In this document: piece after piece, positions 5,985-22,967 of the stretch
How the letters are laid out: each line of letters starts with the position of its first letter
Numbering within the stretch: the first letter of the stretch is position 1
Source: an uncultured Bacteroidaceae bacterium
GTDB taxonomy: Bacteria; Bacteroidota; Bacteroidia; Bacteroidales; Bacteroidaceae
Direction: 5' to 3'
Assembly (NCBI GenBank): GCA_905235285.1
Contig: CAJOLI010000013.1
Coordinates: forward strand, 6,116-70,115
Length of the DNA stretch: 64,000 nucleotides
Notes under the pieces: model-generated
Told to the model about the DNA's origin: nothing
Databases searched by the model: none
Seen by the model: the letters and a program-made list of their open reading frames with translations, nothing else
Position numbers and translations under genes: made by a program

Positions 5985-6001
5985 GACTCTCCCCCGCCCT
6001 C
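5985..6001 (+). repeat. Solo copy (one C shorter) of the 19-nt terminal module of the palindromic element family
   Basis: GACTCTCCCCCGCCCTC compared with GACTCTCCCCCCGCCCTCC at 12917, 12938 and 18408. It is intergenic between the two FAS1 genes. Confidence 0.7.
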
Positions 6002-6010
6002 TTCTTTCTC

Positions 6011-7891
6011 TTACTCCCTATCCTCATCTCTAATCAGATCTACGGGGATGTACTCGATATAGTCGGCGTGGAACTGTCGGCCACCGCCCTTGTCATCCAT
6101 GTTTTTGGCACGGAAGTAGTGGTAGCCATAGTCCTGGAAGAGGTACTGACCAATGATGATGCGCAGGCAGGCCGACATATCGCGCAGGCTCTTGCCGCCC
6201 TCCTGCCCCGTGTACATACTGGTGGGAGCCTTCATATAGCCGTGGTTGCGCATCATCTTGTCGTTCTCAATGCCATCGTCGGAGGTGTCCTCGTCATGGA
6301 CGTAGCCGATGCGGGGGTCGTTCTCGGCACCGTTGTAGCCAATGGTGAGGTCCACGGGAATGCCAGCAATCTGACCGTCGATGAAGAGCTGTGCTATGCC
6401 TCGCCAGTTCTCGGCACGGTAGCCAAGGCGTATCTCGTAGTTGCCAGGAGGCACGGGCAGCATGCGCAGTGTGAAATCATACATGGGTCCGGCAATGAGC
6501 ATCTCGTCGCTCTGGTAGTTGGTCCAGCCGTCGGAGGCCCATAGGGTCAGCTCCGAGCCTGTGTTGTATTTGAAGCAGTCGCCGCAGAAGTCCTGCGGGA
6601 AGGCGTGCGCGCTCGAGAGGTAGTCCCAATTCCAGCGGATGTGGTTGTTGGTGAGTTGGGGAGGCACGGCATAGAAGTCGAAGCGGATGCGCTTGTGCAT
6701 GACATCGGAAGTCATGACGTCCTCATCGTAAACGAGCAGGTCGCGCAGCACATGAATGTAGCCGTTCATCGTCTCGATATTGCTGGCCTCGTCGTCGAGG
6801 TGTACGCTCTTGCCATTGCGCTGGCGGTTGATCTCGGGCCCGGCCTTTACCTCTATCATGCGGTAGGCGAGCATCGTCTCGTAGTATTCGTATGCTTTCG
6901 AGCGATAGGTCGGTGCGCAGGCGAAGCCAGTGTAGACCATCGAGCCCGTGTTCATCTGGCGGTCGAGGATGTGGTAGGCCACGAAGCGGTGCAGGGGGTT
7001 ACGCTCGTCTGTGTAGCGGCCGAGGGCTTCGGAGCCATACCACTGCTCGGCGAAGCGCTCCACGGCCGAGAGCGTGTCGGAGCCCGCGATGGTGAGACCA
7101 GCCTGACGCAGTACGTCGTCGGGTTCGGCAAAAACGGTCCACCCCAGCTTACAATGTTCATAGTGGCCTTGAGAGGGGTCTTCGCTGTCGAAGCCGGCAG
7201 GCCCGGTGTAGGCGGGGTCGTAGAGGTCGGACATCCGTTCGTTGAAGCCCGAAGCCGCAAACGCCCGTGCGAAGATGCCGAGCGACGGCTGCCCGGCCAG
7301 TCGCTCGAGGAAGGTCGCCTCGGAGGGCTCTATGACGTGGTCCACGACGTGAACGACACCATTGTGGACTTCGTTATCGGCGCTGATGATGCGTGCCAGG
7401 CTGTTGACGAGAATCTCGCGCTGGCCCTCGTCGTTGGTGACGAAGCTGATCTGAACAGTGCGGTCCTGCATGCTCAGCAGCGATGTGGCGCTGCCCACGA
7501 AGTCCGTCGTCAGGAACTCTTGGCTGTTATTGCGGATGGTGCTGCTGTAGACCACTTTCTGCATGTCCTCCTCAGTCAAGTCCTCCCAGCGCTGTCCCCG
7601 CTCGCCCAGCCATTCGTCGATAGCCGCATTGGTGGGCGGGAAGAGGGTGAAGTGGCCGTAGATGCCGAGCAGGCTCTCATCGCCGGTAGCCACCAGCATC
7701 TCGTAGAAACGGCTGAGCTCGGGCGTGTGTTCGCAGAAGCTGGCCGCCGTCTCACCGGTGAAGGTGTACATCGCCTCGTCCTGGATGTCGTCGCCGTTGC
7801 AGGCGCCGAGGCAGGCAAGGATGGCGAGGGAGGTTAGCGTCGCCACCGAATGGCGACAGAAAAAGCGGAATGTCATATTCATCGTTTTCAC
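6011..7891 (-). CDS. Fasciclin (FAS1) domain lipoprotein
   Basis: Signal and lipobox LAILACLGAC. FAS1 signature: HFTLFPPTNAAIDEWL...NGVVHVVDHVIEPS. The start overlaps the susD stop by 4 nt. Confidence 0.75.
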   Translation of the reverse strand: MKTMNMTFRFFCRHSVATLTSLAILACLGACNGDDIQDEAMYTFTGETAASFCEHTPELSRFYEMLVATGDESLLGIYGHFTLFPPTNAAIDEWLGERGQRWEDLTEEDMQKVVYSSTIRNNSQEFLTTDFVGSATSLLSMQDRTVQISFVTNDEGQREILVNSLARIISADNEVHNGVVHVVDHVIEPSEATFLERLAGQPSLGIFARAFAASGFNERMSDLYDPAYTGPAGFDSEDPSQGHYEHCKLGWTVFAEPDDVLRQAGLTIAGSDTLSAVERFAEQWYGSEALGRYTDERNPLHRFVAYHILDRQMNTGSMVYTGFACAPTYRSKAYEYYETMLAYRMIEVKAGPEINRQRNGKSVHLDDEASNIETMNGYIHVLRDLLVYDEDVMTSDVMHKRIRFDFYAVPPQLTNNHIRWNWDYLSSAHAFPQDFCGDCFKYNTGSELTLWASDGWTNYQSDEMLIAGPMYDFTLRMLPVPPGNYEIRLGYRAENWRGIAQLFIDGQIAGIPVDLTIGYNGAENDPRIGYVHDEDTSDDGIENDKMMRNHGYMKAPTSMYTGQEGGKSLRDMSACLRIIIGQYLFQDYGYHYFRAKNMDDKGGGRQFHADYIEYIPVDLIRDEDRE

Positions 7892-9444
7892 CTGGTTATG
7901 TCAGTTGATGTTTCGTAGAACCGATTCTGCCGCAGCAACGTATTGGCTCGGAGCTCATCATCGTTGATGGGCATATAGATGGCATCGACGTCATTCAGTT
8001 TCGGGCGGACGTCGGCCCACATGCTGACGACCTCCTCGTACCGCTTGCGCAGATGAGTCTCGAGCACCTGCGTGGGCGTTCCGTCGCGGCGCATACGGCG
8101 CATGAGGTCGAAGTAGCGTTTGCCCTCGAAGAGGAATTCGCGCTGTCGTTCGGCCAGAACGAGGTTGCGCACCTCCTCTTGGCCCGCCGTGTTGGCCATG
8201 AGGGAGCCTGGCTCGAGGTCGGGATTGGCGCGGTCGTAGGTGATGCCGCACAGTCGTACTGCTTCCTGGAGGTTGTCGCTGCCTCCGAGCTCGGCCAGTG
8301 CCTCGGCTTTCATCAGGTAGACATCTGGCAGTCGATAGAGGATCCAGTTGCAGTGCGTGTCGCCCCATTGGAAGTCGGCCTCGCGGCCATCGGCGTTCGT
8401 CAGGTTGGTGCGCAGGGCCGTATATTTCTTTATGGCATAGTAGGCACCCGCACTGACGAAGGCATTCATGCGGCGCAGGTCGCGATGCACAAGGAAGAGG
8501 TCGCCAGAGCCACCTGCACCCGAGAAGTTGTAACTCGAGAGGCAGGCATCCGTTCCGTTGGCGCCGAAGAAATCGCGCACGGCAGCGTTCTCATTGTTCT
8601 GGTCGAGTTGCAGTTCCCAGATGCTCTCGCTGGAGTTGCCAGCGACGAAGACGTTGCGGAAATAGGTTGAAGCGCGCTCGAGGCTCAGCGGATTGGCAGT
8701 AGCGGAGAGCACCTTGTCGCAAGCCTCGATGCAGTCGTCGTAGCGATCGAGCCAGAGGGCGATGTCGGCCTCGAGCGTCCAAACCGCTTTCTGGGTGATG
8801 CGTCCGCGCGTGTAGGGGATGTTCTCGGTCCAGAGCTGCGGAGCCTGCGTGTCGATGCCCTTGAGGTTGGCGAGCTCTGCCTCTAAGATCTCGTCGCCCG
8901 ACGTCTGCGGCAGCATGAAGGGTCGGCTGTCGTCTACATATGGCTCCACGACGTAAGGCACGTCCTTGAAGGCCCGCACCAGCGTGAAGTAGCAGAAGGC
9001 TCGGATGGCCTTGGCTTCGGCCAGATGGGCATTGAGCTCGGAGGAGGCGTAGTCGGGGTCGGAGTCCTGCACCCCGGGGGCTTCGGCGATGAGCGTGTTG
9101 CACTGGTTGATGCACGCATAGAACAGGTTCCAGCGCGTATATTCGTTGGTGGGAGTGATGTTGGCCGTGAGAATCTTGTAGACATTGTCCTCGCGGTTAC
9201 GGCCGTCGAGGACGTTGTCGCTGCGCAGTTCGCCCCACACCAGCAGCCGCTTGATGACGCCCTGGTCGGCCAACGTGCGGTAGCAGGCGCCGATGGCTCC
9301 TTCCACGTCGCTTTTCTTCTTCCAGAAATCGTCGCGCACCATCTCGCTCTCAGGAGGCGTAGAGAACCAGTCCTCGCAAGAGGTCGTCATGCTTACAAGA
9401 GCCAAGGCTGTGATGAAATATTTTGCTTTCATTCTTATTTTCAT
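7888..9444 (-). CDS. SusD/RagB-family nutrient-binding lipoprotein
   Basis: Lipoprotein signal ALALVSMTTSCEDWF. Typical SusD N-terminus: DDFWKKKSDVEGAIGACY...WGELRSDN. Located downstream of susC. Confidence 0.85.
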   Translation of the reverse strand: MKIRMKAKYFITALALVSMTTSCEDWFSTPPESEMVRDDFWKKKSDVEGAIGACYRTLADQGVIKRLLVWGELRSDNVLDGRNREDNVYKILTANITPTNEYTRWNLFYACINQCNTLIAEAPGVQDSDPDYASSELNAHLAEAKAIRAFCYFTLVRAFKDVPYVVEPYVDDSRPFMLPQTSGDEILEAELANLKGIDTQAPQLWTENIPYTRGRITQKAVWTLEADIALWLDRYDDCIEACDKVLSATANPLSLERASTYFRNVFVAGNSSESIWELQLDQNNENAAVRDFFGANGTDACLSSYNFSGAGGSGDLFLVHRDLRRMNAFVSAGAYYAIKKYTALRTNLTNADGREADFQWGDTHCNWILYRLPDVYLMKAEALAELGGSDNLQEAVRLCGITYDRANPDLEPGSLMANTAGQEEVRNLVLAERQREFLFEGKRYFDLMRRMRRDGTPTQVLETHLRKRYEEVVSMWADVRPKLNDVDAIYMPINDDELRANTLLRQNRFYETSTDITR

Positions 9445-9546: not shown

Positions 9547-12500
9547 TTAGAACCCTACCGTCACGCCCAGCGTGAAGTAGCGGGCACGTGGCGTTCGGTT
9601 GTTGTCCTTAGCGACGCCGAAGTCGCTGCCACTTGGCGAGATCTCGGGGTCGGCGCCCGTGTATTTGGTGAGGGTGAGCATATTGTTGAGCGTGAGGCTC
9701 AGCATCAGGCTGTTCAGTCCTGCACGTTTGATCAGGTTCGGGTCGAAGTTATAGTTGACGGTCACCTGCTTCAGGCGGAGGAACGAGCCGCTCTCGACGA
9801 AGCGGTCGCTGGCGAGCCAGTTGTAGCCGCTCTGGTAGAGGGCTCGCGGCATGTCGGTGACGTCGCCGTCCTTGCGCCAGCGCCAGTTGGTGGCGATGCT
9901 CTGGTTGTTGGTAGAGTACATGTTCTCATTGTACATCCGTCCATAGTTGATGACCTTTGAGCCCAGGCGGAAGTTGGCCCACGTGTTGACGGTCAGTCGT
10001 CGCCAGCGGATGGTGAAGCCGAAGCCGCCGTCCAGCTTGGGGTTGGAGTTGCCGAGATAGACGATGTCCAGCTCGTCGATAGTACCGTCGTGGTTGACGT
10101 CCTCGTAGACCGCATCGCCGCCACGGAAGCGGTAGTTGGTACGTCCGTAGTCGAAGTACATCGGGATGGTCTCACCCTTGCCGTCGAGCACCGGCTGTCC
10201 GCGGTCATCGCGCACGACGGGCGCATTGGGACCCGAGACACCCGCGTTCTCCACGGCGCTGTACTTGTCGTACTGGTAGACCCCGCGATAGCGAAAGCCG
10301 TAGATGCTGCCGAAGGCGTTCTCCACCTGAATGCGGTTCAGATAGCTGCCATTGGCGGGAGAGAACTCAGCCTGATAGCTGCTGAGCACCATGGGGTCGA
10401 GCTCCTTGATCGTGTTGCGGTAGTTGGAGAGGTTGACGCTGACGTCCAGCTGCCAGTCGCCCCGCCTGAGCATACGGTTGGTGGACAGCTCCAGTTCCCA
10501 TCCGTTGTTGTCCATCGTGCCCGCATTGATGTAGCTGATGCTGCCGAAGCCGGTGCTCGAGGGGATGGTCTGATTGGCGAAGAGCAGGTCGGAGGTGCGG
10601 CGGTGGTAAGCGTTCAGGACCAGGCGGTAGCGGTAGTCTAGGAAGTTGAGCTCCAAGCCTGCGTTGAGGCTCGACGAGCGTTCCCATCGCAGGTTGCTCA
10701 GCTGCAGGCTGGCCGGCTTGATGGTGGGCAGGTCGACATAGTTGGAGCCGTAGCTGTCGTAGCGGCTGTAGCAGAGGTATTCGCGGTCGGGGCGGTTGCC
10801 CGTCACGCCCCATCCCAGTCGCAGGCTACCCTCAGAGAACCACTTGTCAGCAGCCCGCCGCATCCAGGGCTCGCTCGTGAAGATCCATTTGGCCGCGAAG
10901 GAGGGGAAGAAGCCCCATCGGTTGTCCTGCCCGAAACGGCTGCTGCCGTCCCATCGCGCACTCGCATCGACGACGTAGCAGTCCAGCAGCTTGTAGTGGC
11001 CGCTGACGAGGCAGGCCATGTTGCGACCTTGGTTCTTGGCACTGTAGAACGACTCGGGCACCATGCGCCCGCCTGTGCTGACGTCCATGGCTGTGGCCGA
11101 GGGCAGACCGTAGCGTTCGAACTGCTGAATCTTGCCGTGGCCGACGTCCATCTGCCATGAGGCGTAGAGCATGAGGCTGTGGTCGTCGCCCAGGCGGGGC
11201 ACGTAGGTCAGGTTGTGGTCGGTGTAGATGGTCATGGCCTCGCTCTCGCGCTGGTAGCTGCGACCCACGGCGCCGTCAGTCCAAGGCCGCGTAGACGTCT
11301 CGCGAGGGCGGAACTTGGCATCCTTGACGTTCTCGCTGTCGAACTTGACATAGCCTTGGTAGCGCAGGCGCCCGTCGTCGTCGGGGTCAAGAAAGTCGTA
11401 GCGCAGGCGCAGCGTCGGCATGATGCGCATATTAGTCTGCTGATACGAGGCCAGCTTGGCGATGGCCACAGGGTTGGCCAAGTCCTTCTGGTCGGCATTG
11501 AGCACCGAACTCTGAGCGATGTTGAAGAACTCGCCCGTAGCAGCTCCGTCGGTATCGCGGCGGTAGATGGCAGCATTGGGCATCTTCTTGTAGGCGATGC
11601 TCAGCAGGCCGTCGACCGAGCCGTCGTTGTAGTTCCTGTCGTTGTCGGTATAGGTGAGGCCGAACTCCGAGGCGAACATCAGTCGGCGCGAGACGTTGTA
11701 CTCCAAGTTCATGTTGCCCGTGAAGCGGCTCAGGCCCTGCCCGATGACCGTTCCCGTCTGGCGGTAGTAGCCGAGCGAGGTGCGGAAGCGTGCACGCTCG
11801 CCGCCGCCCTGCAGGGAGATGAGGTGGTCGTGCGTCCAGCCCGTCTGGCGGACGGCATCCACCCAGTCGGTGTTCTGCGTGAAATTGTTGAAGTCGGCAG
11901 CCGTGCCATAGGCAGTGAGGAACTGCTGGCGGTCGTAGCTGTACTCGGGGATACGGACATCCTCGCGATAGGCGTTGAAGTAAGCCTGTTTCATCAGCAT
12001 CGTGTACTCGTCGCCATCGAGCAGCGGAGCTCCCTTGGGCTGCCAGTTGCCCGAGAGACGATAGCTGTAGGTGACGCGGGTGGGACCTGTCACACCCTTC
12101 TTTGTCGTGATGTTGATGACGCCGTTGGCGCCACGGGCGCCCCAGATGGCGCAGGCCGCGCCGTCCTTCAGCACCGTCACCTCCGCGATGTCGTCGGGAC
12201 TGATGCACAGGAGGTTGGCAAACTGTTCGTTGTCGGCATTGGCGAAGTCGAAGCCCTCGGTGTTGCTCTCGAAGGGGATGTTGTTGACCAGGATGAGCGG
12301 CTCGTTGTTGCTGTTGATACTGGTGATGCCGCGGATGCGCATCGTCGTGCCGCTGCCGAGGTCGCCCGAGTTGGCCACGATGTCGAGACCCGCTATGCGT
12401 CCTTGCAGCGCATCGTCAATGCTGGTGACCGACATACCTTCAAGCCGCTCGGTCGAGAAACGTTGCATGGCGCCCGTGTACTCGCGCTCAGGGATCGACA

Positions 12501-12864
12501 TGCCGCCCGACGAGACGGTGCGTGTGGCTTTCACGACGACCTCCGTGAGCACGTTCTTGGCCTTCAGCATCACGTTGACCTTGCGCTGCCCGCGAATCGG
12601 TACCACCTGTTTCGTATAGCCCACGTAGCTGAACATGAGGTCGTTGTCGGTGGACTTCACCGCGATGGAGAAGTTGCCGTCGAAGTCGGTCTGAACAGCC
12701 GTAAGGATGCGCCCGTTCTTGTCCTGTTCGGCCACTGAGGCGGCAATGAGACCGTCAGGCTCATCATCACCGATGACGCGGCCCGTGATGATGGTCTGAG
12801 CGCTCAGGCGAAGCGAGAATGCGGCAAGCAGCAGCATGATAAGAAACCATTTATGATTTACCAT
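9547..12864 (-). CDS. SusC/RagA-type TonB-dependent outer-membrane transporter
   Basis: 1105 aa with a signal peptide and a CarboxypepD_reg segment (ITGRVIGDDEPDGLI...DFDGNFSI). The plug is TMRIRGITSINSNNEPLILVNNIPF. The C-terminus is the typical barrel end YFTLGVTVGF. Confidence 0.9.
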   Translation of the reverse strand: MVNHKWFLIMLLLAAFSLRLSAQTIITGRVIGDDEPDGLIAASVAEQDKNGRILTAVQTDFDGNFSIAVKSTDNDLMFSYVGYTKQVVPIRGQRKVNVMLKAKNVLTEVVVKATRTVSSGGMSIPEREYTGAMQRFSTERLEGMSVTSIDDALQGRIAGLDIVANSGDLGSGTTMRIRGITSINSNNEPLILVNNIPFESNTEGFDFANADNEQFANLLCISPDDIAEVTVLKDGAACAIWGARGANGVINITTKKGVTGPTRVTYSYRLSGNWQPKGAPLLDGDEYTMLMKQAYFNAYREDVRIPEYSYDRQQFLTAYGTAADFNNFTQNTDWVDAVRQTGWTHDHLISLQGGGERARFRTSLGYYRQTGTVIGQGLSRFTGNMNLEYNVSRRLMFASEFGLTYTDNDRNYNDGSVDGLLSIAYKKMPNAAIYRRDTDGAATGEFFNIAQSSVLNADQKDLANPVAIAKLASYQQTNMRIMPTLRLRYDFLDPDDDGRLRYQGYVKFDSENVKDAKFRPRETSTRPWTDGAVGRSYQRESEAMTIYTDHNLTYVPRLGDDHSLMLYASWQMDVGHGKIQQFERYGLPSATAMDVSTGGRMVPESFYSAKNQGRNMACLVSGHYKLLDCYVVDASARWDGSSRFGQDNRWGFFPSFAAKWIFTSEPWMRRAADKWFSEGSLRLGWGVTGNRPDREYLCYSRYDSYGSNYVDLPTIKPASLQLSNLRWERSSSLNAGLELNFLDYRYRLVLNAYHRRTSDLLFANQTIPSSTGFGSISYINAGTMDNNGWELELSTNRMLRRGDWQLDVSVNLSNYRNTIKELDPMVLSSYQAEFSPANGSYLNRIQVENAFGSIYGFRYRGVYQYDKYSAVENAGVSGPNAPVVRDDRGQPVLDGKGETIPMYFDYGRTNYRFRGGDAVYEDVNHDGTIDELDIVYLGNSNPKLDGGFGFTIRWRRLTVNTWANFRLGSKVINYGRMYNENMYSTNNQSIATNWRWRKDGDVTDMPRALYQSGYNWLASDRFVESGSFLRLKQVTVNYNFDPNLIKRAGLNSLMLSLTLNNMLTLTKYTGADPEISPSGSDFGVAKDNNRTPRARYFTLGVTVGF

Positions 12865-12915
12865 TTACGATTTACAATTTAGTTGACAAGTTAACAAGTT
12901 GACAAGTTGACTAGT
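12863..12915. repeat. Short tandem arrays forming the susC 5' leader: (ATTTACR)x3 then (TRACAAGT)x4
   Basis: The sequence catttacg atttaca atttagt tgacaagt taacaagt tgacaagt tgactagt abuts the susC start codon (12862-12864). Confidence 0.7.
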
Positions 12916-12916
12916 A

Positions 12917-13074
12917 GACTCTCCCCCCGCCCTCCAAGACTCTCCCCCCGCCCTCCCTGTTAGGGAGGGAGCGGAATGTATTAGACTGAATGAAAGATAT
13001 CTGCCCTCAAAGGTGATCGCTCCCTCCCTAACAGGGAGGGCGGGGGGAGAGTCTTGGAGGGCGGGGGGAGAGTC
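12917..13074. repeat. Nested palindromic (MITE/REP/RPE-like) element, copy 1
   Basis: Two tandem 19-mers GACTCTCCCCCCGCCCTCC (12917-35, 12938-56) are followed by the mini-palindrome CCCTCCCTGTTAGGGAGGG and a ~45-nt core. The inverted arm then carries two inverted 19-mers (13035-53, 13056-74). The core and arms are about 90% identical to 18408..18523. Confidence 0.85.
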
Positions 13075-13077
13075 AAC

Positions 13078-15753
13078 TTATTTATTATAGGGTGCTACGC
13101 GGTCGACGACGTGGATGACGGCGCGGCTGGAGGCAAGTATATTGTTTGCACGTTGCGGGTCCTTATTGTCTACGATGAGGTCGCGAGCCCAGACGTTATA
13201 CAAAGCGGGATCAGAGGTCACTACGTGCGCAGCATCGTCGGTGCCAAAGGTGAGGCCGTCGCCAGCCGAAGTGATCGTGACGGGGATGAACTGACCACCC
13301 GCCCTACGGGCGGCGGTGTAGTAGGTGCGCGTCCACGAGCCAGTGCCTACGGGCACGGCGCCGTCGATGAAATGGAAACGCAGGAAGTTGAGCAGATAGA
13401 GGCAGCGGGCTTTCTTCACTGCGGGGTCGTCCTCCATCGTGATCTGTTCCCATGTCCACAGGTCGGCATCGGCGCGGAAGGCCGCCTCGATGGCCTCGTT
13501 GGTAGGCACGAGAACGGTGTAGCGGTAGTTGTTGAAGGAGGTCACGGTCTGTCCTACGCCGCTGGACTGCTCGGTGGTCTGCTGATCAAAGATGGCCTGG
13601 ACATCCTTGTCGTCCTTGAAGTAGGCGTAGACGGCGGGGTCGCCCAGCAGGAGCTGGAAGAAGCGGCTGTAGGCTGCGTTGTCGCGCAGAGTCGTGTAGA
13701 CAGAGCGCGCCGGGTCTTGCAGGATGCGGTCGATGAAGAAGGTGTGGCTGTTCGTGGTGACGTAGATGCTGTCGGCAAGTCGGGCGGCGGGCAGCCCGAG
13801 CTCGGCATCGCCGACACCAGCGAACTGGGTGGCGAGGCCGCGGCCGCCGGCACGACGGATGACGGTGCCGCCCTTGGTGAGGTAGAAGGTCTTGTCGCCA
13901 GCGTCCATGAAGCCTGACATGGGTTCGTCCTCGGTGTCGGCTACGACGATGTGCGCGTCGATGATGTCGCGCAGGCGGTTCTGGATGCGGCTCTGGTCGG
14001 CCGACGACGTGCCGATGGTGCGCTGCAGCGCGCCGCGGCTACCGTCGGGGTTGACGGCATAAACGTCGGCCAGGATGCGGTCGCCGCCCATGCGGAAGCC
14101 CCATATCTCGCGGTTGTCCACGCCCGTGTTGGCGCAGATGCTCCAGGAGATGGGCTCGGCATAGTAGCGCACAGCCGAGTCGGTGGGTACGAGCAGGTTG
14201 TACTGGTTCTCCAGGGAGCGCAGGTAGAGGTGGAATTTCAGCTCGTCGTTCTCGTCGATGGCTGCCTTCATGACGCGCGTGACGGGAGAGGTCAGCGTGG
14301 GGGCGTAGGCGCATTTGTAGTCGATGGGCGGGAAGCAGGTGTTGGTGAAGTAGACGAGACCGTTGCAACCCTGCGCCGTGCCGACGATGCAGTCGCGCCG
14401 CACGTTCATCAGGTTGCCTTTCTGGTCGGCCAGGTTGTCCCAGTCATTGGGCAGCGAACCGACGAACGATTTCAGTTGATGGTTCTTGATGAACTTACAG
14501 AGGACATCGATGGGTACGTTGTCCCACGTGCCATAGACCTTGCGAAGGAATGCTCCGTCGTTGCCGTTCCAGTAGGCACGCATAGCCTCGTCGGTAGGCA
14601 CGAGCATGACGCCCATATCGGTGGGCGCACCCAGATGGTTGTAGGCGGGGTCGAAATAGAGCAACCTGTCGTCGGTGAGCGTCTCGGCTTCGCGTCCGGG
14701 CTGCTGCGGCGTCTGCGTGCAGGCTCCTGCGGCATTGTCGTTGAAATAGCGGCGGACGTAGACCGTGTCGGTCACATAGTCGTTCATCTCGTCGGCACGG
14801 ACGGTGACATCTATGTCGGCATCGTAGTAGGGTGCCGAGAACTTGTTCATCAGCAGGGCGAACAGGCTGGTAGCGGCATTGTCTTCGATGAGCTCGGCCA
14901 TATTGGGCAACGCTGTCACCACCTCGTCGGCAGGGTGGAGGTAGCCGTTCTTGCAGGTCGTGTTCTTCGCCTCCTCGCGTACGCGCGCTCCATTTACGTA
15001 GAAACCTTTTTCCTCGTAGGGCGCCCCACCGCCAATGAGTTCCCAGTCGGCCTCCGTGATGCCGCGTTTCTGCATGAAGGCAGGCGTGAAGATGACATCG
15101 GGGCGGGCCTCGTTGTCCACAATCCATGCACCACCGCGTTGGGCGAAGCGTGCCCACCACTTGGTGGCTGGCAGACGGTCAGCATCGAAGTGCCGGATGC
15201 GGTCGTAGATGGTAGACGAGGCGTCGCGCAGCACGGCCATTCCCTCGCCGTCATCGTCGCTGTTGGCGTTGGGCACGTTGGCCAACATCTTGTCCAGATA
15301 GGCCATATTGAGCATCGAGGCATTGAAAAGGTAGTTGGCATCGGCACGCGTGAGGCCGACGGCTATGTCGGTAGGCGAAGAGCCATTAAGGCCATGAGCG
15401 CTGAAATAGCGGGCATAAGCGTCGTCGGTAGCAGGGAAGAGCGTCTTGCTGCCCGTCCGGGCAAGGGTGCCGTCGAGGCCGAGGCGGTCGATGAGCGTCA
15501 GGTAGGTGGCATAGTGCCCGTCGGCTCGCAGCCAGTCATAGACGCTGCTCCCTAACCATGTAGGTTCCTCGTTGTCGTAGGCGTAGTCATCGCGGCACGA
15601 CGAGAAGCCCAGCATCGTCAGCGCCAGCAGCAGAATGCTTCCGAGGCATTGGCGGCGCCAGCGGCGGGGACGGCTCGACAAGCTCACGTCAGGACGCTTC
15701 GACAAGCTCGCGCCAAGACGGCTAAGGTGAAGTTGTTGGATGAGTGTGATCAT
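13078..15753 (-). CDS. Multi-FAS1 (fasciclin) domain lipoprotein
   Basis: 891 aa with repeated FAS1 signatures (GSKTLFPATDDAYARYF; YTVLVPTNEAIEAAF...AVIHVVDRV) and a lipobox MLGFSSC. The N-terminal 35 aa carry a repeat motif, and an alternative GTG start exists at 15687. Confidence 0.7.
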   Translation of the reverse strand: MITLIQQLHLSRLGASLSKRPDVSLSSRPRRWRRQCLGSILLLALTMLGFSSCRDDYAYDNEEPTWLGSSVYDWLRADGHYATYLTLIDRLGLDGTLARTGSKTLFPATDDAYARYFSAHGLNGSSPTDIAVGLTRADANYLFNASMLNMAYLDKMLANVPNANSDDDGEGMAVLRDASSTIYDRIRHFDADRLPATKWWARFAQRGGAWIVDNEARPDVIFTPAFMQKRGITEADWELIGGGAPYEEKGFYVNGARVREEAKNTTCKNGYLHPADEVVTALPNMAELIEDNAATSLFALLMNKFSAPYYDADIDVTVRADEMNDYVTDTVYVRRYFNDNAAGACTQTPQQPGREAETLTDDRLLYFDPAYNHLGAPTDMGVMLVPTDEAMRAYWNGNDGAFLRKVYGTWDNVPIDVLCKFIKNHQLKSFVGSLPNDWDNLADQKGNLMNVRRDCIVGTAQGCNGLVYFTNTCFPPIDYKCAYAPTLTSPVTRVMKAAIDENDELKFHLYLRSLENQYNLLVPTDSAVRYYAEPISWSICANTGVDNREIWGFRMGGDRILADVYAVNPDGSRGALQRTIGTSSADQSRIQNRLRDIIDAHIVVADTEDEPMSGFMDAGDKTFYLTKGGTVIRRAGGRGLATQFAGVGDAELGLPAARLADSIYVTTNSHTFFIDRILQDPARSVYTTLRDNAAYSRFFQLLLGDPAVYAYFKDDKDVQAIFDQQTTEQSSGVGQTVTSFNNYRYTVLVPTNEAIEAAFRADADLWTWEQITMEDDPAVKKARCLYLLNFLRFHFIDGAVPVGTGSWTRTYYTAARRAGGQFIPVTITSAGDGLTFGTDDAAHVVTSDPALYNVWARDLIVDNKDPQRANNILASSRAVIHVVDRVAPYNK
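15675..15719 (+). repeat. Tandem pair of the 21-nt motif TCGACAAGCTCACGTCAGGAC (second copy 18/21)
   Basis: 15675-15695 is an exact reverse complement of 4292-4312. 15699-15719 reads TCGACAAGCTCGCGCCAAGAC. Confidence 0.8.
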
Positions 15754-15867: not shown

Positions 15868-18141
15868 TCAGAGTTCGAGCAGGGTGCCACGGTGCTTGGA
15901 GGTGAGCAGGAAGCGGAGCGTCCCGCCTTGCAGCAAATCGTGATGCGAGAGGATCGGGCGTTTCAATTTCTGCCCATTCCATCGAATTTCCTTAAGATAA
16001 ATGGCATCCTTTCCTTGGCGAGATGTCTCGATGCGGAAGACCTTTCCATCGGACAGGTTAATTGTTGCTTCCTCGACCGAGGGTGCGAAAAGGACATACT
16101 CGGCCGAGGCCGGATTGAGGGGGTAGAGGCCTAAGGCTGCGAAGACATACCAGGCTGACATCTCGCCACAATCGTCATTGCCGATGTAACCGCTGACCTC
16201 GTCATTGTACATCGTCCGACGGATATAGTCCACGAGTTGGTCAGTCTTCTGAGGCTGACCGGCGAGGGTATAGAGGAAGGCTACGTGGTGGCTGGGCTCG
16301 TTGCCGTGGGCATACAGCCCGATGAAACCGCTGGCATTGTCGTTTCTGTCGCCGCTGGTGTCCTTGCAAGTGAAGAAATAGTCCAGCTGGTTCAGGAAGT
16401 GCTTCTGCCCGCCACTGAGGCTGATGAGGCCGTCGATGTCATGTTGCACCGACCAACGCCATTGCCAGGCGTTGCCTTCGGTGTAGGCGCTGCCGCCGTT
16501 GGCTCCGTAGCGCAGCGGGTCGAAGCCTTCGATCCAGTAGCCTTTGTCGTCTTTGGGTTGGAACAGGTCCGACTCGGTGTTGTAGAGGTTGCGATAGTTG
16601 CGGGCGAGGGTGTCAAAATGTTCCATTTCATCGGTCAGGCCGAGACGTTCGGCCAGACGAGCGGCGCACCAATCGTCGTAAGCGTCTTCGAGGGTGATGC
16701 TTACGCTTTGCGTCTGCTGGTTTTCGGGCATATAGCCCAGACGCTCCCACAACGGCCATGGCGAGTCGCGATGGGGCGTGGTGAGTGTCCGCTGGATGGC
16801 GCGCCAGGCGGCGTGCTCGTCAATGCCCGGCACTTCCTTGCGTATGGCTTCGACGATGATGCTGACGGCGTGGTTGCCAATCATACAATAATTATCCTGC
16901 CCCCACAGTTCCCAGATAGGCAGATAGCCGTAGTGTCCAGCGTGGTCGATCATGGACATGACCATATCGGCAGCCCGGGCGGGTTGCAGCAGGTCGTAGA
17001 GGGCATGGGCTGCACGATAGGTGTCCCAGATGCTGAACATCGTGTAGAAGGCGTGTCCCTCACGCGCGTGTCCTATAGCATAATCGGCGCGCACGTAGTC
17101 GCCATTCACGTCGCTGAACGCTGATGGCTGCTGCATGGCGTGGTAGAGAGCCGTGTAGAAGATGGTGGTGGCGGCACTCCCACTGAAGCGGGCGTTGATG
17201 CCGCCGAGCACAGCCTCCCACTGCTGGCGGGCACTGGCGCAGAGCGCGTCGAAGCTTCGGCCTGAGGTCTCTTGTTCACGGTTGAGGCGGGCATTCTCCA
17301 TGCTGACGGCTGAGATGCCTACTTGGGCTTCCAACTCGCGACCTTCGCTGGCGAAGGTGAAGGTGGCCTTGAGGTCGGTGCCGTTGACGAAGAAGGATGG
17401 CGCGCCGCCGACTCCCAGTTCGCGCCCGTCGTTCCAGCCATGGACGGCGACGATGGGCTTGGAGAAACGGATGCTGAAGCACACCTTGCGCAAGGGAGCC
17501 CAGCCGGTGATGAGGCGATAGCCCTCAACGGTGTGGGCATCGACGATGCGCAGTTGGGCTTTCTCTATGCGGCGGCCCCACGACCCTTTGGCGGCAGAGT
17601 GGTCGAGGTCGAGATAGACTTGCTGACTTGCACCCACGGCGTAGGTGTAGCGATGAACGCCCGTATGGGTAGCGGCCGTCAACTCGGCAAGGATATCGTC
17701 ATCGGTGAGGCGGACGGCATAGTAGCCTGGGTGCGCCTGCTCGCTTGCATGATCAATGGTGACGTGACGGCTTTCGGAGCTGGTAGGAAGCATGAGGATG
17801 TCTATGAGGTCGGCGGCTCCTGTGCCCGAGAGGTGGGTGTGCGAGAAACCGTAGATGACTGTTTCCTCGTAGGCATAGCCTGCAGGACAGTCCCAGTCGG
17901 GGGCTTCGCGCGTGTCGGGCGACAGCTGCACCAACCCGAAAGGAACAGTAGCTCCAGGGTAGTTATTACCTCGCAAGGCCCCTTCGATACGGCCTGTGCC
18001 GATGAACGGATTGACGTAGTCGGTCAGCCTGGCTGCCCCGAGAGCGGGCTGCGCACTGGCGTTCTCACACTTCAGACTGCCTGCCACGGCTGTCATGGCG
18101 AGAAAGAGGATGAATGTTTTCGCGATTGAAGGTGTTCTCAT
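15868..18141 (-). CDS. GH92 alpha-mannosidase family protein
   Basis: GH92 signatures YPGATVPFGLVQLSPDT and HGNEPSHHVAFLY. The likely start is MRTPSIAKTFILFLAM at 18141; the upstream 38 codons of the track ORF cross the promoter. Confidence 0.85.
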   Translation of the reverse strand: MRTPSIAKTFILFLAMTAVAGSLKCENASAQPALGAARLTDYVNPFIGTGRIEGALRGNNYPGATVPFGLVQLSPDTREAPDWDCPAGYAYEETVIYGFSHTHLSGTGAADLIDILMLPTSSESRHVTIDHASEQAHPGYYAVRLTDDDILAELTAATHTGVHRYTYAVGASQQVYLDLDHSAAKGSWGRRIEKAQLRIVDAHTVEGYRLITGWAPLRKVCFSIRFSKPIVAVHGWNDGRELGVGGAPSFFVNGTDLKATFTFASEGRELEAQVGISAVSMENARLNREQETSGRSFDALCASARQQWEAVLGGINARFSGSAATTIFYTALYHAMQQPSAFSDVNGDYVRADYAIGHAREGHAFYTMFSIWDTYRAAHALYDLLQPARAADMVMSMIDHAGHYGYLPIWELWGQDNYCMIGNHAVSIIVEAIRKEVPGIDEHAAWRAIQRTLTTPHRDSPWPLWERLGYMPENQQTQSVSITLEDAYDDWCAARLAERLGLTDEMEHFDTLARNYRNLYNTESDLFQPKDDKGYWIEGFDPLRYGANGGSAYTEGNAWQWRWSVQHDIDGLISLSGGQKHFLNQLDYFFTCKDTSGDRNDNASGFIGLYAHGNEPSHHVAFLYTLAGQPQKTDQLVDYIRRTMYNDEVSGYIGNDDCGEMSAWYVFAALGLYPLNPASAEYVLFAPSVEEATINLSDGKVFRIETSRQGKDAIYLKEIRWNGQKLKRPILSHHDLLQGGTLRFLLTSKHRGTLLEL

Positions 18142-18168
18142 ATAGATGGAACTTCTTGTTTTCCGTTG

Positions 18169-18176
18169 CAAAGATA
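18169..18176 (-). promoter_or_regulatory. -7 promoter box TATCTTTG for GH92
   Basis: Exact TAnnTTTG match 28 nt upstream of the ATG at 18141. Confidence 0.5.
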
Positions 18177-18255
18177 GTTTGTCGTCTCGTTGTCTGCCGT
18201 GAAACCTTGCGTCCCTTTTTACGCCAGATGCGTCAATAGTCCATTTGCGATGCAT

Positions 18256-18323: not shown

Positions 18324-21300
18324 ATGCACATAAGACCTATCCTTTTATTGCTGCTGAGCTGTCTGACGATGACGGCAGCGGCGGTTCCCCGCAAAGACCC
18401 ACCCCCAGACTCTCCCCCCGCCCTCCCTGTTAGGGAGGGAGCAGATACCATCAGACTGGATGAAAGATATCTGCCCTCAAAGGTGACCGCTCCCTCCCTA
18501 ACAGGGAGGGCTGGGGGAGAGTCCGGCTTCCTGACCGTGGACAGCCGTTCGGGGCTGGCGCAGAACAACGTGAAGAGCATCGCTCAGGATGACTTCGGCT
18601 TCGTATGGCTGGGCACCAAGAACGGGCTGTGCCGCTACGACGGCCGCTCGCTGCGCACAGTGCGTGTGGCGGATGGCGATACGGGGGCTGCCAACCAGAA
18701 CATCTCGGCGCTGGAGCGGGAGGCGGGCCACCTGCTGTGGGTGGGCACCGACCAGGGGCTGTTCCTCTACGACCTGAGCGCGGACCGCTTCCTCCATGTG
18801 GAGACGGCTGCTGCCGACGGGCAGCGGATGACGAACTGGGTGTCCGAGATCTGGCACGACGGCGAGGGCAATGTCTGGGTGGTGGTGCCCGACGAGGGCA
18901 TTTTCAGAATTGCCTGTGCAGGGGGTGGCGGCGCCGAGGCGATGGCCACGGCTCCGCTGCACCATTATGCCAATCCGGGGCAGACGAGTTCGAACCACTT
19001 CAGCTGCCTCAGCGTGGGACCCGGCGGCGAGGTGTGGGCCAGCGGATGGAACATTGGGCTGTGGCGCTACGTGCCGCAGACCGACGGCTTCGAGCAGCTG
19101 CGCGAGGATGCCACGGGGCGCCCGCTGGTGGGCATCCAGACGAACACGCTGACGTCGCTGGCCGACGGCTCGCTGGCGATGGCGGTGCAGGACGGGCACC
19201 TGTTGCTCTACTCCCCCATCAGGGGCGAGCTGACGGAGAACCCGTGGCAGGATTTCAGTGCGACCATCGTGCGCGGCGCCAGGGCCTACGGTGAGACGCT
19301 GCTCGTGGGCACCTACGACGGGCTCTACCTCATCAACACGCGGACGGGCGAGGCGGCCCACTACAGCCACGACCGCAACAACCGTCTCAGCCTCTCCGAC
19401 GATATCATCTACTCCATCTTCCGCGACCGCGAGGGTGGCTACTGGCTCGGCACCATGTTCGGCGGCGCGGCCTACCTGCCTGCGCGCGAGCAGATGTTCA
19501 CGGTCATCCAGTGCGACGATGTGGGCCGCACGCTCTCGAGCGACCGCATTCGCCAGCTGACCACCGACGGCGGCACCAGCCTGTGGCTCTGCACCGAGGA
19601 CAGGGGCATCAATCACATCAACCTCGCCACAGGGCGTATAACGCCTGACGTAGGTCATACGGACAGCAAGGACGACAACTACACCGTCTGCCTCACCTAC
19701 TTCCAGGGGCGGCTCTACGCCGGCATCAACAAGGTGGGCGTCAAGGTGGTCGACACGCGCACGGGCCAGACACTCTTGCTCTCAAACAGCCTGTTGGGAA
19801 TGCCCGAGGGCGCGAGTACGTACGACATCAGCGTCGACCGTCAGGGCCTCTTCTGGCTGGCCACGGACAAGGGCGTGTGGCGCGGCCGCCTCGACACAGG
19901 AAGCGCGCTCACGTCCGTCGAGGGCTTAGAGGACCTGTGGGCCTACCAATTGCTTCATGACAGGCGAGGCGACGTCTGGGCGGCGCTCATGGGTGGCGGT
20001 TTGGCGCATTTAGATATAAGGAACGGGCGCGTGAGGCGCTACCTGCCCGAGGCCGACAACCCACACAGCCTCTCGTCGGCCAGCGTCAGTGCCGTATTCG
20101 AGGACAGCCGGGGGCGTATTTGGCTCAGCACTGACCGGGGTGGCATCTGCCGCTACCGCCCCGAGAGCGACGACTTCGAGCGCTTCAACACGGAGCAGGG
20201 TCTGCCCGACAACGTGGCCTACAACATCCTTGAGGACAGCCACCAACGCCTCTGGTTCGGCACCAACCGAGGGCTGGTGCAACTGGATCCCGCCACGGGG
20301 CGCATACGCCTGTTCACCACTGCGCAGGGCCTGCCCAGCAACCAGTTCAACTACAAGGCAGCGTTGGCATTGAACGGTAACACGTTCTTCTTCGGTACCA
20401 TCAACGGCCTCGTGCGTTGTCACCCCGACTTGTTGGCCTCTGACGGTGAGGGAGGGCGGACTGCCTCAGCCGCCGACCTGCTCATCACGCGCCTCAGCAT
20501 CGACGGACAGGAGGTGACGCCGCAGTCTCCGCACTCGCCTCTGAAGCACAGCATCATGGAGACCGACCGCATCACGTTGCCCTTCAGGCATTCCAACATC
20601 AGCCTCGACATAGCACTGCTCTCCTACGGCGACCGCCTGGAGACGGCCTACGAGTACCGCCTCGAGCCGCTCGACGAAGAGTGGCATCCAGTGCCTGACG
20701 GCGGCCTGACATTGGCTAACGTAGGTTCGGGCACCTATACGCTACGCCTGCGATCCTCGGGACTCACGGGCGACAATGCGAGCCAGCGCGAACGCACGCT
20801 CATCATCGTCGTGCGACAGCCGCTGTGGCGACAGTGGTGGGCCATCGTGCTCTACTTCATCGCCGCTGCCGCCCTCGTCAGCCTCTGGGCCATCTGGTAT
20901 CGGCGCCGCAAGGAGCGGCAGTTTCAGGAGCGGCAGCACGTCTTCGCCATCGAGAAGGAAAAGGAACTGAGCGAGAAACGCATACAGTACTTCACCGAGA
21001 TTGCGCACGAGATACGTACGCCGCTCACCCTCATCAGCGGACCACTCGAGGTCATCGAGCGGGCGGGCATCGACAACCAGCGCGTGGCCCACAACCTGAG
21101 CGTCATCCATCAGAACACCAACCGACTGCTGAACCTTGCCTCGCAGCTCCTGGACTTTCAGAAGGTCGATTCGGGAGAGTTGCACCCGCAACTGGAGACG
21201 GTCAACGTCAGCGAATTGCTGCGCGACACGATGGAGCGCTTCGAACCTACCTACGCCCTGCGCGGCAAACGGCTCCTACAGCTGCACATCGAGCCTGCCG

Positions 21301-22944: not shown

Positions 22945-22967
22945 TAAATGATAAATCGTATGATGAT

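Follow-up and report, generated by a model that had tools for sequence, protein, structure and literature searches.

A Palindromic Element Between a Fasciclin Gene and susC in an Uncultured Bacteroidaceae Bacterium: A Probable Nuclease-Less Miniature of a DUF559 Cassette

Introduction

Several families of dispersed palindromic repeats have been described in bacteria, among them the repetitive extragenic palindromes (REP) and their mosaic assemblies (BIME), the MITEs (miniature inverted-repeat transposable elements), the Rickettsia palindromic elements (RPEs), the BoxC/PIT/TMECO repeats and the Correia and ERIC elements. Here we compare them with a palindrome at positions 12913-13078 of a 64,000-nucleotide stretch of DNA (the window: assembly GCA_905235285.1, contig CAJOLI010000013.1, positions 6,116 to 70,115) from an uncultured Bacteroidaceae bacterium, where it separates a Fasciclin-domain gene from a susC-like gene inside a polysaccharide utilization locus (PUL). 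The genome, G000 below, is a metagenome-assembled genome (MAG) of 2.76 Mb in 153 contigs, 85% complete. Alignment with longer members of its family suggests that the window copy is probably a nuclease-less, non-autonomous miniature of a hairpin-ended cassette encoding a DUF559 protein, a Vsr-like PD-(D/E)XK nuclease. The family resembles MITEs, RPEs and the REPIN/RAYT systems, yet it lacks features by which such systems are defined, namely target-site duplication, a RAYT gene and a strictly extragenic location.

The original prediction had likened the palindrome to REP/BIME elements, and structurally the analogy holds: it is a dispersed mosaic palindromic repeat with other copies in the genome, its presence at the junction is polymorphic, and its arms are small hairpins. 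As in the REP/BIME and REPIN-RAYT systems of Proteobacteria, short imperfect palindromes are combined into inverted mosaic units, also exist as solo units and are found at gene 3' ends within operons; as in REPIN-RAYT systems, an enzyme gene lies between copies of its own repeat. The enzyme, however, is here a nuclease of DUF559/Vsr fold and not a Y1 transposase, and the family is common inside open reading frames (ORFs; 30 of 57 paired elements), whereas REP and REPIN are strictly extragenic.

With MITEs the family shares short, non-coding units with terminal inverted repeats, multiple dispersed copies and presence/absence polymorphism. Its parent of about 489 bp, with identical ends, encodes the DUF559 nuclease and not a recognised transposase, and no target-site duplication was found at the fasciclin-susC junction, in a hybrid two-component system (HTCS) gene or at a site on contig C114. 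About 90% of prokaryotic MITEs are intergenic according to a census of 183,232 genomes. RPEs, covered in a review of MITEs (PMC10969869), are likewise dispersed palindromic repeats of about 100-150 nt lying in frame in coding genes, in one fixed frame. This likeness holds at the level of the family, whose in-ORF copies mostly keep one phase and share a common peptide, the window copy itself being intergenic; the differences are another host phylum, the existence here of a coding parent with the same ends, and the donation of start codons by junction copies. To our knowledge there is no sequence resemblance to RPEs, and the relation is one of analogy only.

The arms also recall the BoxC/PIT/TMECO repeats of E. 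coli and its relatives (Holder et al. 2015, PMC4666352), which are intrastrand-triplex repeats, consist of a C-rich stem, a 3-nt loop, a G-rich stem, a short loop and a second G-rich block, and which are intergenic, often in inverted pairs and associated with variable loci. The TMECO consensus is CCCTCNCCC N3-6 GGGNGAGGG N3 GGGNGAGGG (PMC4666352); the blocks of the window arms follow as CCCTCCCT-AAC-AGGGAGGG-C-GGGGGGAGAG. Membership of the window arms was rejected, G000 containing no exact match to the consensus and only the block order being common. Six G000 matches with up to three substitutions belong to another arm subfamily; the arm subfamily CCCCCCTCCCTTTGGGGGAGGGGTCGGGGGAGAG, partly arranged in inverted pairs, lies within three substitutions of TMECO (C23:27652-27704, C29:3659, C30:629-738 and C153:1946). 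TMECO also differs in not being described as embedded in coding sequence or linked to a nuclease. In E. coli K-12 a TMECO is found about 150 nt downstream of the DUF559 gene ycjD, a single suggestive case. At that locus (L190, 1351.0-1351.8 kb) ycjD extends at its 3' end into a CACCCTCTCCCTGAAAGAGCGAGGGGG hairpin; a partial duplicate of this 3' end comes before the TMECO/BoxC adjacent to fabI. It was beside fabI that BoxC was reportedly first described.

The Correia (CREE/NEMIS) elements of Neisseria and the ERIC/YPAL elements of enterobacteria are similar: they have inverted repeats, measure 100-160 nt and are transcribed together with adjacent genes. Their hairpins in mRNA are cleaved by RNase III or alter transcript stability and, by analogy, an effect of this type would be the most plausible way in which the window copy could affect its operon. 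Correia elements duplicate a TA target and are exclusively intergenic, and we know of no nuclease-encoding parent for them. Finally, the genes of Vsr-like homing endonucleases (I-Bth0305I, PDB 3r3p; PMC3424549) are small ORFs of PD-(D/E)XK/Vsr fold carried by selfish cassettes that are present or absent at fixed sites in conserved genes; a survey of the PD-(D/E)XK nucleases placed VSR, DUF559 and DUF2726 in one clade including that endonuclease (PMC3424549). The DUF559 cassette differs in that no intron or intein removes it, that structured inverted repeats bound it, and that it yields abundant nuclease-less miniatures, of which the window copy, having no ORF, encodes no nuclease. Our literature search found no account of DUF559-linked dispersed palindromic repeats or of in-frame palindromic elements in Prevotella. 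This locus adds a junction history, nested ends and a start-codon rule.

Structure and Parent of the Palindrome

The window copy is made of two 61-nt arms, 98% complementary (12913-12973 and 13018-13078), around a 44-nt centre, 166 nt in total. A nested palindrome at 12917-13074 had been predicted; the nesting is present, and the extent is slightly larger. The 19/20-mer GACTCTCCCCCCGCCCTCC lies at 12917-12935 and 12938-12956, and its reverse complement at 13035-13053 and 13056-13074, with a spacing of 21 nt on each side; because the window holds six matches of the 19-mer against 0.02 expected, chance is excluded. The outermost modules, both listed on the plus strand, are mirror partners, the right one (GGAGGGCGGGGGGAGAGTC, 13056-13074) being a truncated extra copy of an element end. 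Between them, the inner core AAGAC...GTCTT spans 120 nt (12936-13055, minus strand; 116 nt from GAC to GTC, 12938-13053) and is co-oriented with the flanking genes. As had also been noticed, each arm contains a mini-palindrome, CCCTCCCT-GTT-AGGGAGGG: a left hairpin CCCTCCCT-GTT-AGGGAGGGAGC lies at 12951-12972 and a right one, GCTCCCTCCCT-AAC-AGGGAGGG, at 13019-13040 (both plus strand). The element of 158-166 nt has no ORF. One frame per strand is open, the same stop-free frame as in the HTCS copy (DSPPALPVREGA...APSLTGRAGGES), which agrees with the original prediction. Rfam returned nothing for the element except sub-threshold matches to miRNA hairpins.

The origin of this structure became apparent from the rest of the family. 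Paired arms of the exact sequence bound elements that fall into a short class of 111-188 nt (mode 113/116) and a long one of 432-491 nt, and those of 483-491 nt (L090, L100, L126, L132) encode a protein of 121-132 aa. This protein is DUF559 (PF04480, E = 4e-34); its closest solved structure is a Neisseria 'endonuclease-like protein' (PDB 3hrl, E = 9e-17), and it also matches weakly the intron homing nuclease 3r3p. Nucleotides 1-58 of the window core are 90% identical to nucleotides 1-58 of L100, and nucleotides 72-116 are 98% identical to its nucleotides 445-489. The core thus corresponds to both ends of a DUF559 element of about 489 bp, pointing to an internal-deletion derivative from which the whole ORF was lost; the asymmetric, unstranded centre (12974-13017), which lacks an ATG and whose canonical frame is open on either strand, would be the remnant of the sequence upstream and downstream of that ORF. 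Relative to the upstream host gene, the window copy is also oriented as the full-length elements are.

The link between repeat and nuclease extends beyond these exact arms. Inverted repeats of the same architecture, an end block followed by a CCCTCCC-loop-GGGAGGG hairpin, flank 13 of the 16 DUF559 genes in five relatives and both such genes of G000; for the other three of the 16 (L054, L056, L065) no convincing repeat pair was found. The two G000 genes (C7:22410-22712, which is L050 1501-1803, and C94:5298-5615, L051) have in-frame stops two codons apart in a conserved L-W-x-x-L-R motif, one a TAG two codons past the Trp, the other a TGA at the Trp itself. The genes could be pseudogenes; alternatively, such stops may be a recurrent means of keeping nuclease levels low.

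Copies, Placement and Reading Frame

About 25 places in G000 match the element, including solo arms, a 45-nt mini-hairpin and longer variants. The window also holds a sister copy with a 92% identical core (18405-18527, plus strand), in frame after the signal peptide of the HTCS gene, and a solo terminal module with one C fewer (5985-6001, plus strand). Since the nearest copies of the window core are intragenomic (97.4%, 94.9% and 92.2% identity, against at most 90.6% in other species), the sequences indicate that the family probably amplified within this lineage. Among the genomes sampled, 14 of 24 from the same genus contained it, and of 16 from other families of the order none did. A scan of species-representative genomes for the exact arm gave more than 116 stretches, nearly all from rumen Prevotellaceae/Bacteroidaceae MAGs (hosts: sheep, goat, deer, buffalo and cattle), with the single exception of a 3.5-kb contig binned as Ruminococcus. 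The exact arm had no match in IMG/VR and the full-length element none in plasmid or phage collections, so that no vector was identified.

Placement follows rules that are common to the whole family. Among the 30 paired elements that run through long ORFs, 26 are in phase 0, and in-ORF copies always read as DSPPALPVREGA...APSLTGRAGGES. Among the other 27, an ORF of at least 100 aa ends -1 to 12 nt from the element in 18 cases (counting from the outer module of the window copy makes it 19). The position of the window copy, which had been predicted to lie 3 bp after a stop codon upstream of susC and indeed lies 3 nt past the fasciclin TAA (13078-13080) when counted to the outer module, thus matches what is usual in the family. 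The five long elements, four of them intact and one (L120) truncated, all lie 3-8 nt past the stop of a co-oriented host gene. That the element might meaningfully be in frame with the upstream fasciclin ORF was rejected, the distance from stop to element being divisible by 3 in about 8 of 19 cases, the chance level.

Downstream, the junction copies extend into coding sequence: in 17 of 19 the canonical frame of the distal arm runs 149-960 aa into the next gene, and in 15 of 19 this frame is opened by an ATG inside the element. For two full-length elements the sequence was read closely (L100, and L050 of G000): there the ATG and the stop codon of DUF559 overlap. The overlap reads CATGAATAA / CAATGAATAAG (L050 1800-1912 on G000 C7; L100, L120 and L126, from three species, at the same site), and the frame so opened passes through the distal arm into the host gene, KorB-like or ArgB-like (IIKVGGAVVED). 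The window copy is one of the two exceptions, lacking an ATG and having a frame that ends, 16 codons on, at a TAA abutting the susC ATG.

Other arrangements of arms were seen beside these. In elements of 163-188 nt at G000 C40:14474-14646, L069, L115 and L118, an AT-rich centre encodes an ATG and a hydrophobic, signal-peptide-like stretch (e.g., MKVLKIAITSILLLTSSLLSSKV), followed by the distal arm, which is translated, and by the host protein; the signal peptide would either belong to the host and be bracketed by two solo arms, or be supplied by the element. A 629-nt stretch of L108 (4103-4731) contains several tandem arms, readable as repeated ...DSPPALP(K/R/V)REGAVTI(K/Q)K... units, which on its sequence would be an array form of the element.

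The Fasciclin-susC Junction

The operon is read from the minus strand and comprises a GH92 gene (15868-18255), the gene of an 891-aa Fasciclin-domain protein (13078-15753), the gene of a susC-like TonB-dependent transporter with Plug and CarboxypepD_reg domains (9547-12864) and susD (7888-9444). The fasciclin gene is shared with four related species (79-86% DNA identity) and has the same ...PYNK* ending in them, which makes TAA 13078-13080 the native stop. Of these species, three (G005, G100 and G073) have an empty junction, with about 10 nt between the fasciclin stop and the susC ATG, and so has one metagenome contig; a scan of metagenomes for junction alleles gave only this contig, which is G005-like. 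In G000, the element, a (GTCAACTT)x4 array and a twofold 14-mer repeat replace about 24 nt that included the original susC ATG. The array, AGTTGACA x4 on the plus strand, lies at 12881-12920; it is absent from the empty junctions of the relatives, and one complementary 8-mer (GTCAACTT) overlaps the other end of the element at 13072-13079. The 14-mer repeat (12846-12873, plus strand) holds the present susC start codon (ATG 12862-12864, minus strand); the abutting TAA (12865-12867) closes the canonical frame of the element, which is also the susC frame. The N-terminus of SusC is remodelled relative to that of the relatives (MVNHKWFLIMLLLAAF vs MQNKLFFMLLLAAF).

Tandem repeats of these kinds also occur elsewhere. 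(AAGTTGAC)n arrays were seen at three G000 loci, the window one (12881-12920), C25:21106 and C56:2769, of which the array on C56 builds a palindrome of its own, AAGTTGACGAGT...ACTCGTCAACTT. As a family feature of element ends the AAGTTGAC 8-mer was rejected, with two instances in G000 and 1 in 254 ends in other genomes. A GACGAG motif directly precedes an end module at C91:200 of G000 and at 5985 of the window. Short (G)TAAATnnTAAATGG tandem repeats adjoin hairpin elements and gene starts at 12846-12873 and around 22945-22960 of the window and at C1:116286 and C61:9903 of G000; those at the window junction supply the susC start codon.

In the fourth related species, G023, another subfamily (AGACCCACCCC...) is represented at the junction by a 149-nt element located 1 nt past the stop; the centre of this element provides the ATG of the susC ORF, which continues through the distal arm. 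Since G023 is more distant from G000 than the three empty-site species, the simpler reading of these sequences would be that two subfamilies occupied the junction independently. The presence/absence polymorphism anticipated by the original prediction is thus observed, and the outcome that would have spoken against it, a sequence fixed in all relatives with no other genomic copies, is clearly contradicted by the empty sites and the roughly 25 places in G000. Two other sites were compared in the same manner. The HTCS site is empty in G005 and G023, and its left boundary bears a fragment of the end of another subfamily; no target-site duplication was found there, nor at the C114 site, where 51 nt are replaced. 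The latter was rejected as a clean empty site, because the relatives hold 51 nt with a CTAACAGGG motif, possibly an old remnant. At the equivalent position in the host gene (L184, G022:C43, 1572-1622, and G073:C71) these 51 nt contain CTAACAG twice and a small GCGCT hairpin, and they may be the decayed remnant of an older element.

The junction history bears on the function first proposed for the palindrome. A host-selected REP/BIME-like hairpin would protect the 3' end of the GH92-fasciclin mRNA, or attenuate read-through, and so set the ratio of these genes to susC/susD. The RNA stem is very stable. For the element in the orientation of the genes the folding energy is -148.4 kcal/mol (z = -18.7 relative to 200 shuffles); in its mRNA context the long hairpin reaches -149.9 kcal/mol and the first arm alone -28.8, and the DNA arms have -84 and -86 kcal/mol. 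The alternative folds that had been predicted do exist, and are far weaker, the local hairpins alone giving -50.6 kcal/mol. The stem stands 3 nt past a stop codon inside an operon and, unlike in most junction copies, neither arm is translated, so that the long stem can form. REP in malE-malF, like Correia and ERIC elements, alter the stability of the mRNAs that contain them. Nonetheless we find selection for such a role unlikely: three related species have the same PUL with an empty site, so that this PUL works without the element; rules valid across the family and at unrelated genes explain the placement; the stem has no U tract or terminator signature; and the destruction of the original susC start resembles damage and repair, not design. 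RNase III-type processing or 3'-end protection at the window copy is plausible by analogy.

Nested Ends

The outer modules of the window copy are an instance of a wider pattern. Extra partial end modules occur within 45 nt outside 18 of 77 elements (23%), against 1.3% of background windows, and seven elements have them on both sides; of the 32 offsets, 26 are divisible by 3. Outer fragments sometimes belong to other subfamilies or have diverged further than the inner ends, which is consistent with serial occupation of a single site. At the window copy the junction between outer and inner modules is TTGGAGGGCGGGGGGAGAGTC, and it recurs on contig C48 of G000. In its exact form, it is found only in G000 (three times, C48 included) among the 179 genus genomes searched, with one-mismatch versions in G136 and G193; this distribution led us to reject the exact nested junction as a propagating variant. 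In L192 (G136:C40) and L194 (G193:C25) a second small palindrome (GCCGGAACTATTAAGTGTTCCGGC, with flanks) lies inside the right end module, and in L195 (G136:C64) end modules of two subfamilies alternate in tandem on one side only.

Assembly of palindromes that contain internal 19-nt repeats is difficult, and in a MAG of 153 contigs the nested duplication, or even the whole palindrome, might be a short-read artefact built on a simpler 116-nt element. We regard this as very unlikely. The same outer-inner junction is present at a second G000 locus (C48) and nearly identical ones in two other genomes, and the partial extra ends come from MAGs of several independent studies, with offsets mostly in multiples of 3, which is not the pattern that an artefact would give.

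Transcription and Mobility

A stem rich in GC right after a stop codon could also be a terminator or attenuator separating the GH92-fasciclin transcript from an independently transcribed susC-susD unit, and two weak sigma-70-like matches (9/12) do lie in the AT-rich repeat spacer downstream of it. This explanation is highly improbable. No terminator-like site was found in window 12500-13500, the stem being followed by UACUAGUCAACUU without any T/U run, and no Bacteroidetes-type TAnnTTTG box was seen by eye in the spacer, the neighbouring HTCS gene having one (TACCTTTG). With about 10 nt from stop to susC ATG in the relatives, susC is normally co-transcribed; as that junction leaves no room for a promoter, susC and susD must be transcribed through the palindrome. 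There is next to no probability in movement by RAYT, an IS200/IS605-like Y1 transposase that would copy an inverted hairpin doublet of REPIN type as single-stranded DNA, since despite a fitting architecture (two inverted units of about 38 nt, each with a small hairpin, plus solo units) and arms more alike within a copy than between copies, G000 has no PF01797 match above cut-off (best 22.1 bits vs 23, at a contig end), identical arms enclose a DUF559 gene, and over half of the copies are inside ORFs, whereas REPs are extragenic. The similarity of the arms within a copy (1.76 vs 2.44 mismatches between copies, a difference reached in 0 of 5000 permutations) is significant, but common descent from symmetric masters and homogenisation of the arms give the same signal.

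With the empty junction in three species, the destroyed susC start, the missing U tract and placement rules unrelated to PULs, the sequences point to a recent, lineage-specific selfish insertion that would not be a conserved regulatory device and may still affect the operon mRNA. Some observations weigh against a DUF559-derived miniature. The assembled 85% of G000 contains no intact DUF559 gene, the two copies present being of other subfamilies with one in-frame stop each, so that current mobility there is no more than a possibility. Solo arms exist, so the nuclease could be a passenger of the repeat and not its driver. The fasciclin-susC junction has neither a target-site duplication nor a clean boundary between empty and filled states, and it gained additional tandem repeats, and the nested structure rests on a short-read MAG assembly.

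If the element is nonetheless a DUF559-derived miniature, its history can be proposed as follows. It would have entered the short fasciclin-susC spacer just past the stop, the usual intergenic landing place of the family, replacing about 24 nt together with the original susC ATG. A DUF559 nuclease acting in trans would drive the movement, through break repair or gene conversion and not through classical transposition, as the absence of target-site duplication suggests. The window copy would have lost the element-borne ATG together with the nuclease ORF, so that susC would now start from a new ATG in the short AT-rich tandem repeats, directly after the TAA; the nested ends would be scars of repeated invasion or turnover at one site. 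The element would then be a tolerated passenger whose untranslated 61-bp stem is transcribed in the GH92-fasciclin-susC-susD mRNA, and any effect would come from RNase III-type processing of double-stranded RNA or protection of the upstream 3' end, along with the loss of tight stop-start coupling, and not from termination.

A bolder proposal, which we advance tentatively and hold to be possible, if doubtful, is that hairpin-ended DUF559 cassettes and their miniatures form a distinct class of 'junction-replacing' selfish DNA, whose nuclease acts on palindrome or cruciform centres. Members of such a class would land just past a stop codon or in frame within genes, without target duplication, and would bring an ATG overlapping the nuclease stop and a translatable distal arm, making the downstream gene dependent on the element for its start. 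Older copies would be invaded by newer ones, with nested end modules left behind, and the window copy would form a threefold 'Russian doll': 8-mer palindrome, outer ends and inner element.

Concluding Remarks

If this striking hairpin in a PUL is a recent parasite, models of PUL regulation in rumen Prevotella should not assume a function for it. Start-codon donation (15 of 19 junction copies, and susC of G023) is a route by which a selfish element could become hard to lose. Should the nuclease move the repeats, this would give a function to DUF559, a very widespread domain of unknown function, and might provide the missing origin of repeats of the BoxC/TMECO type.

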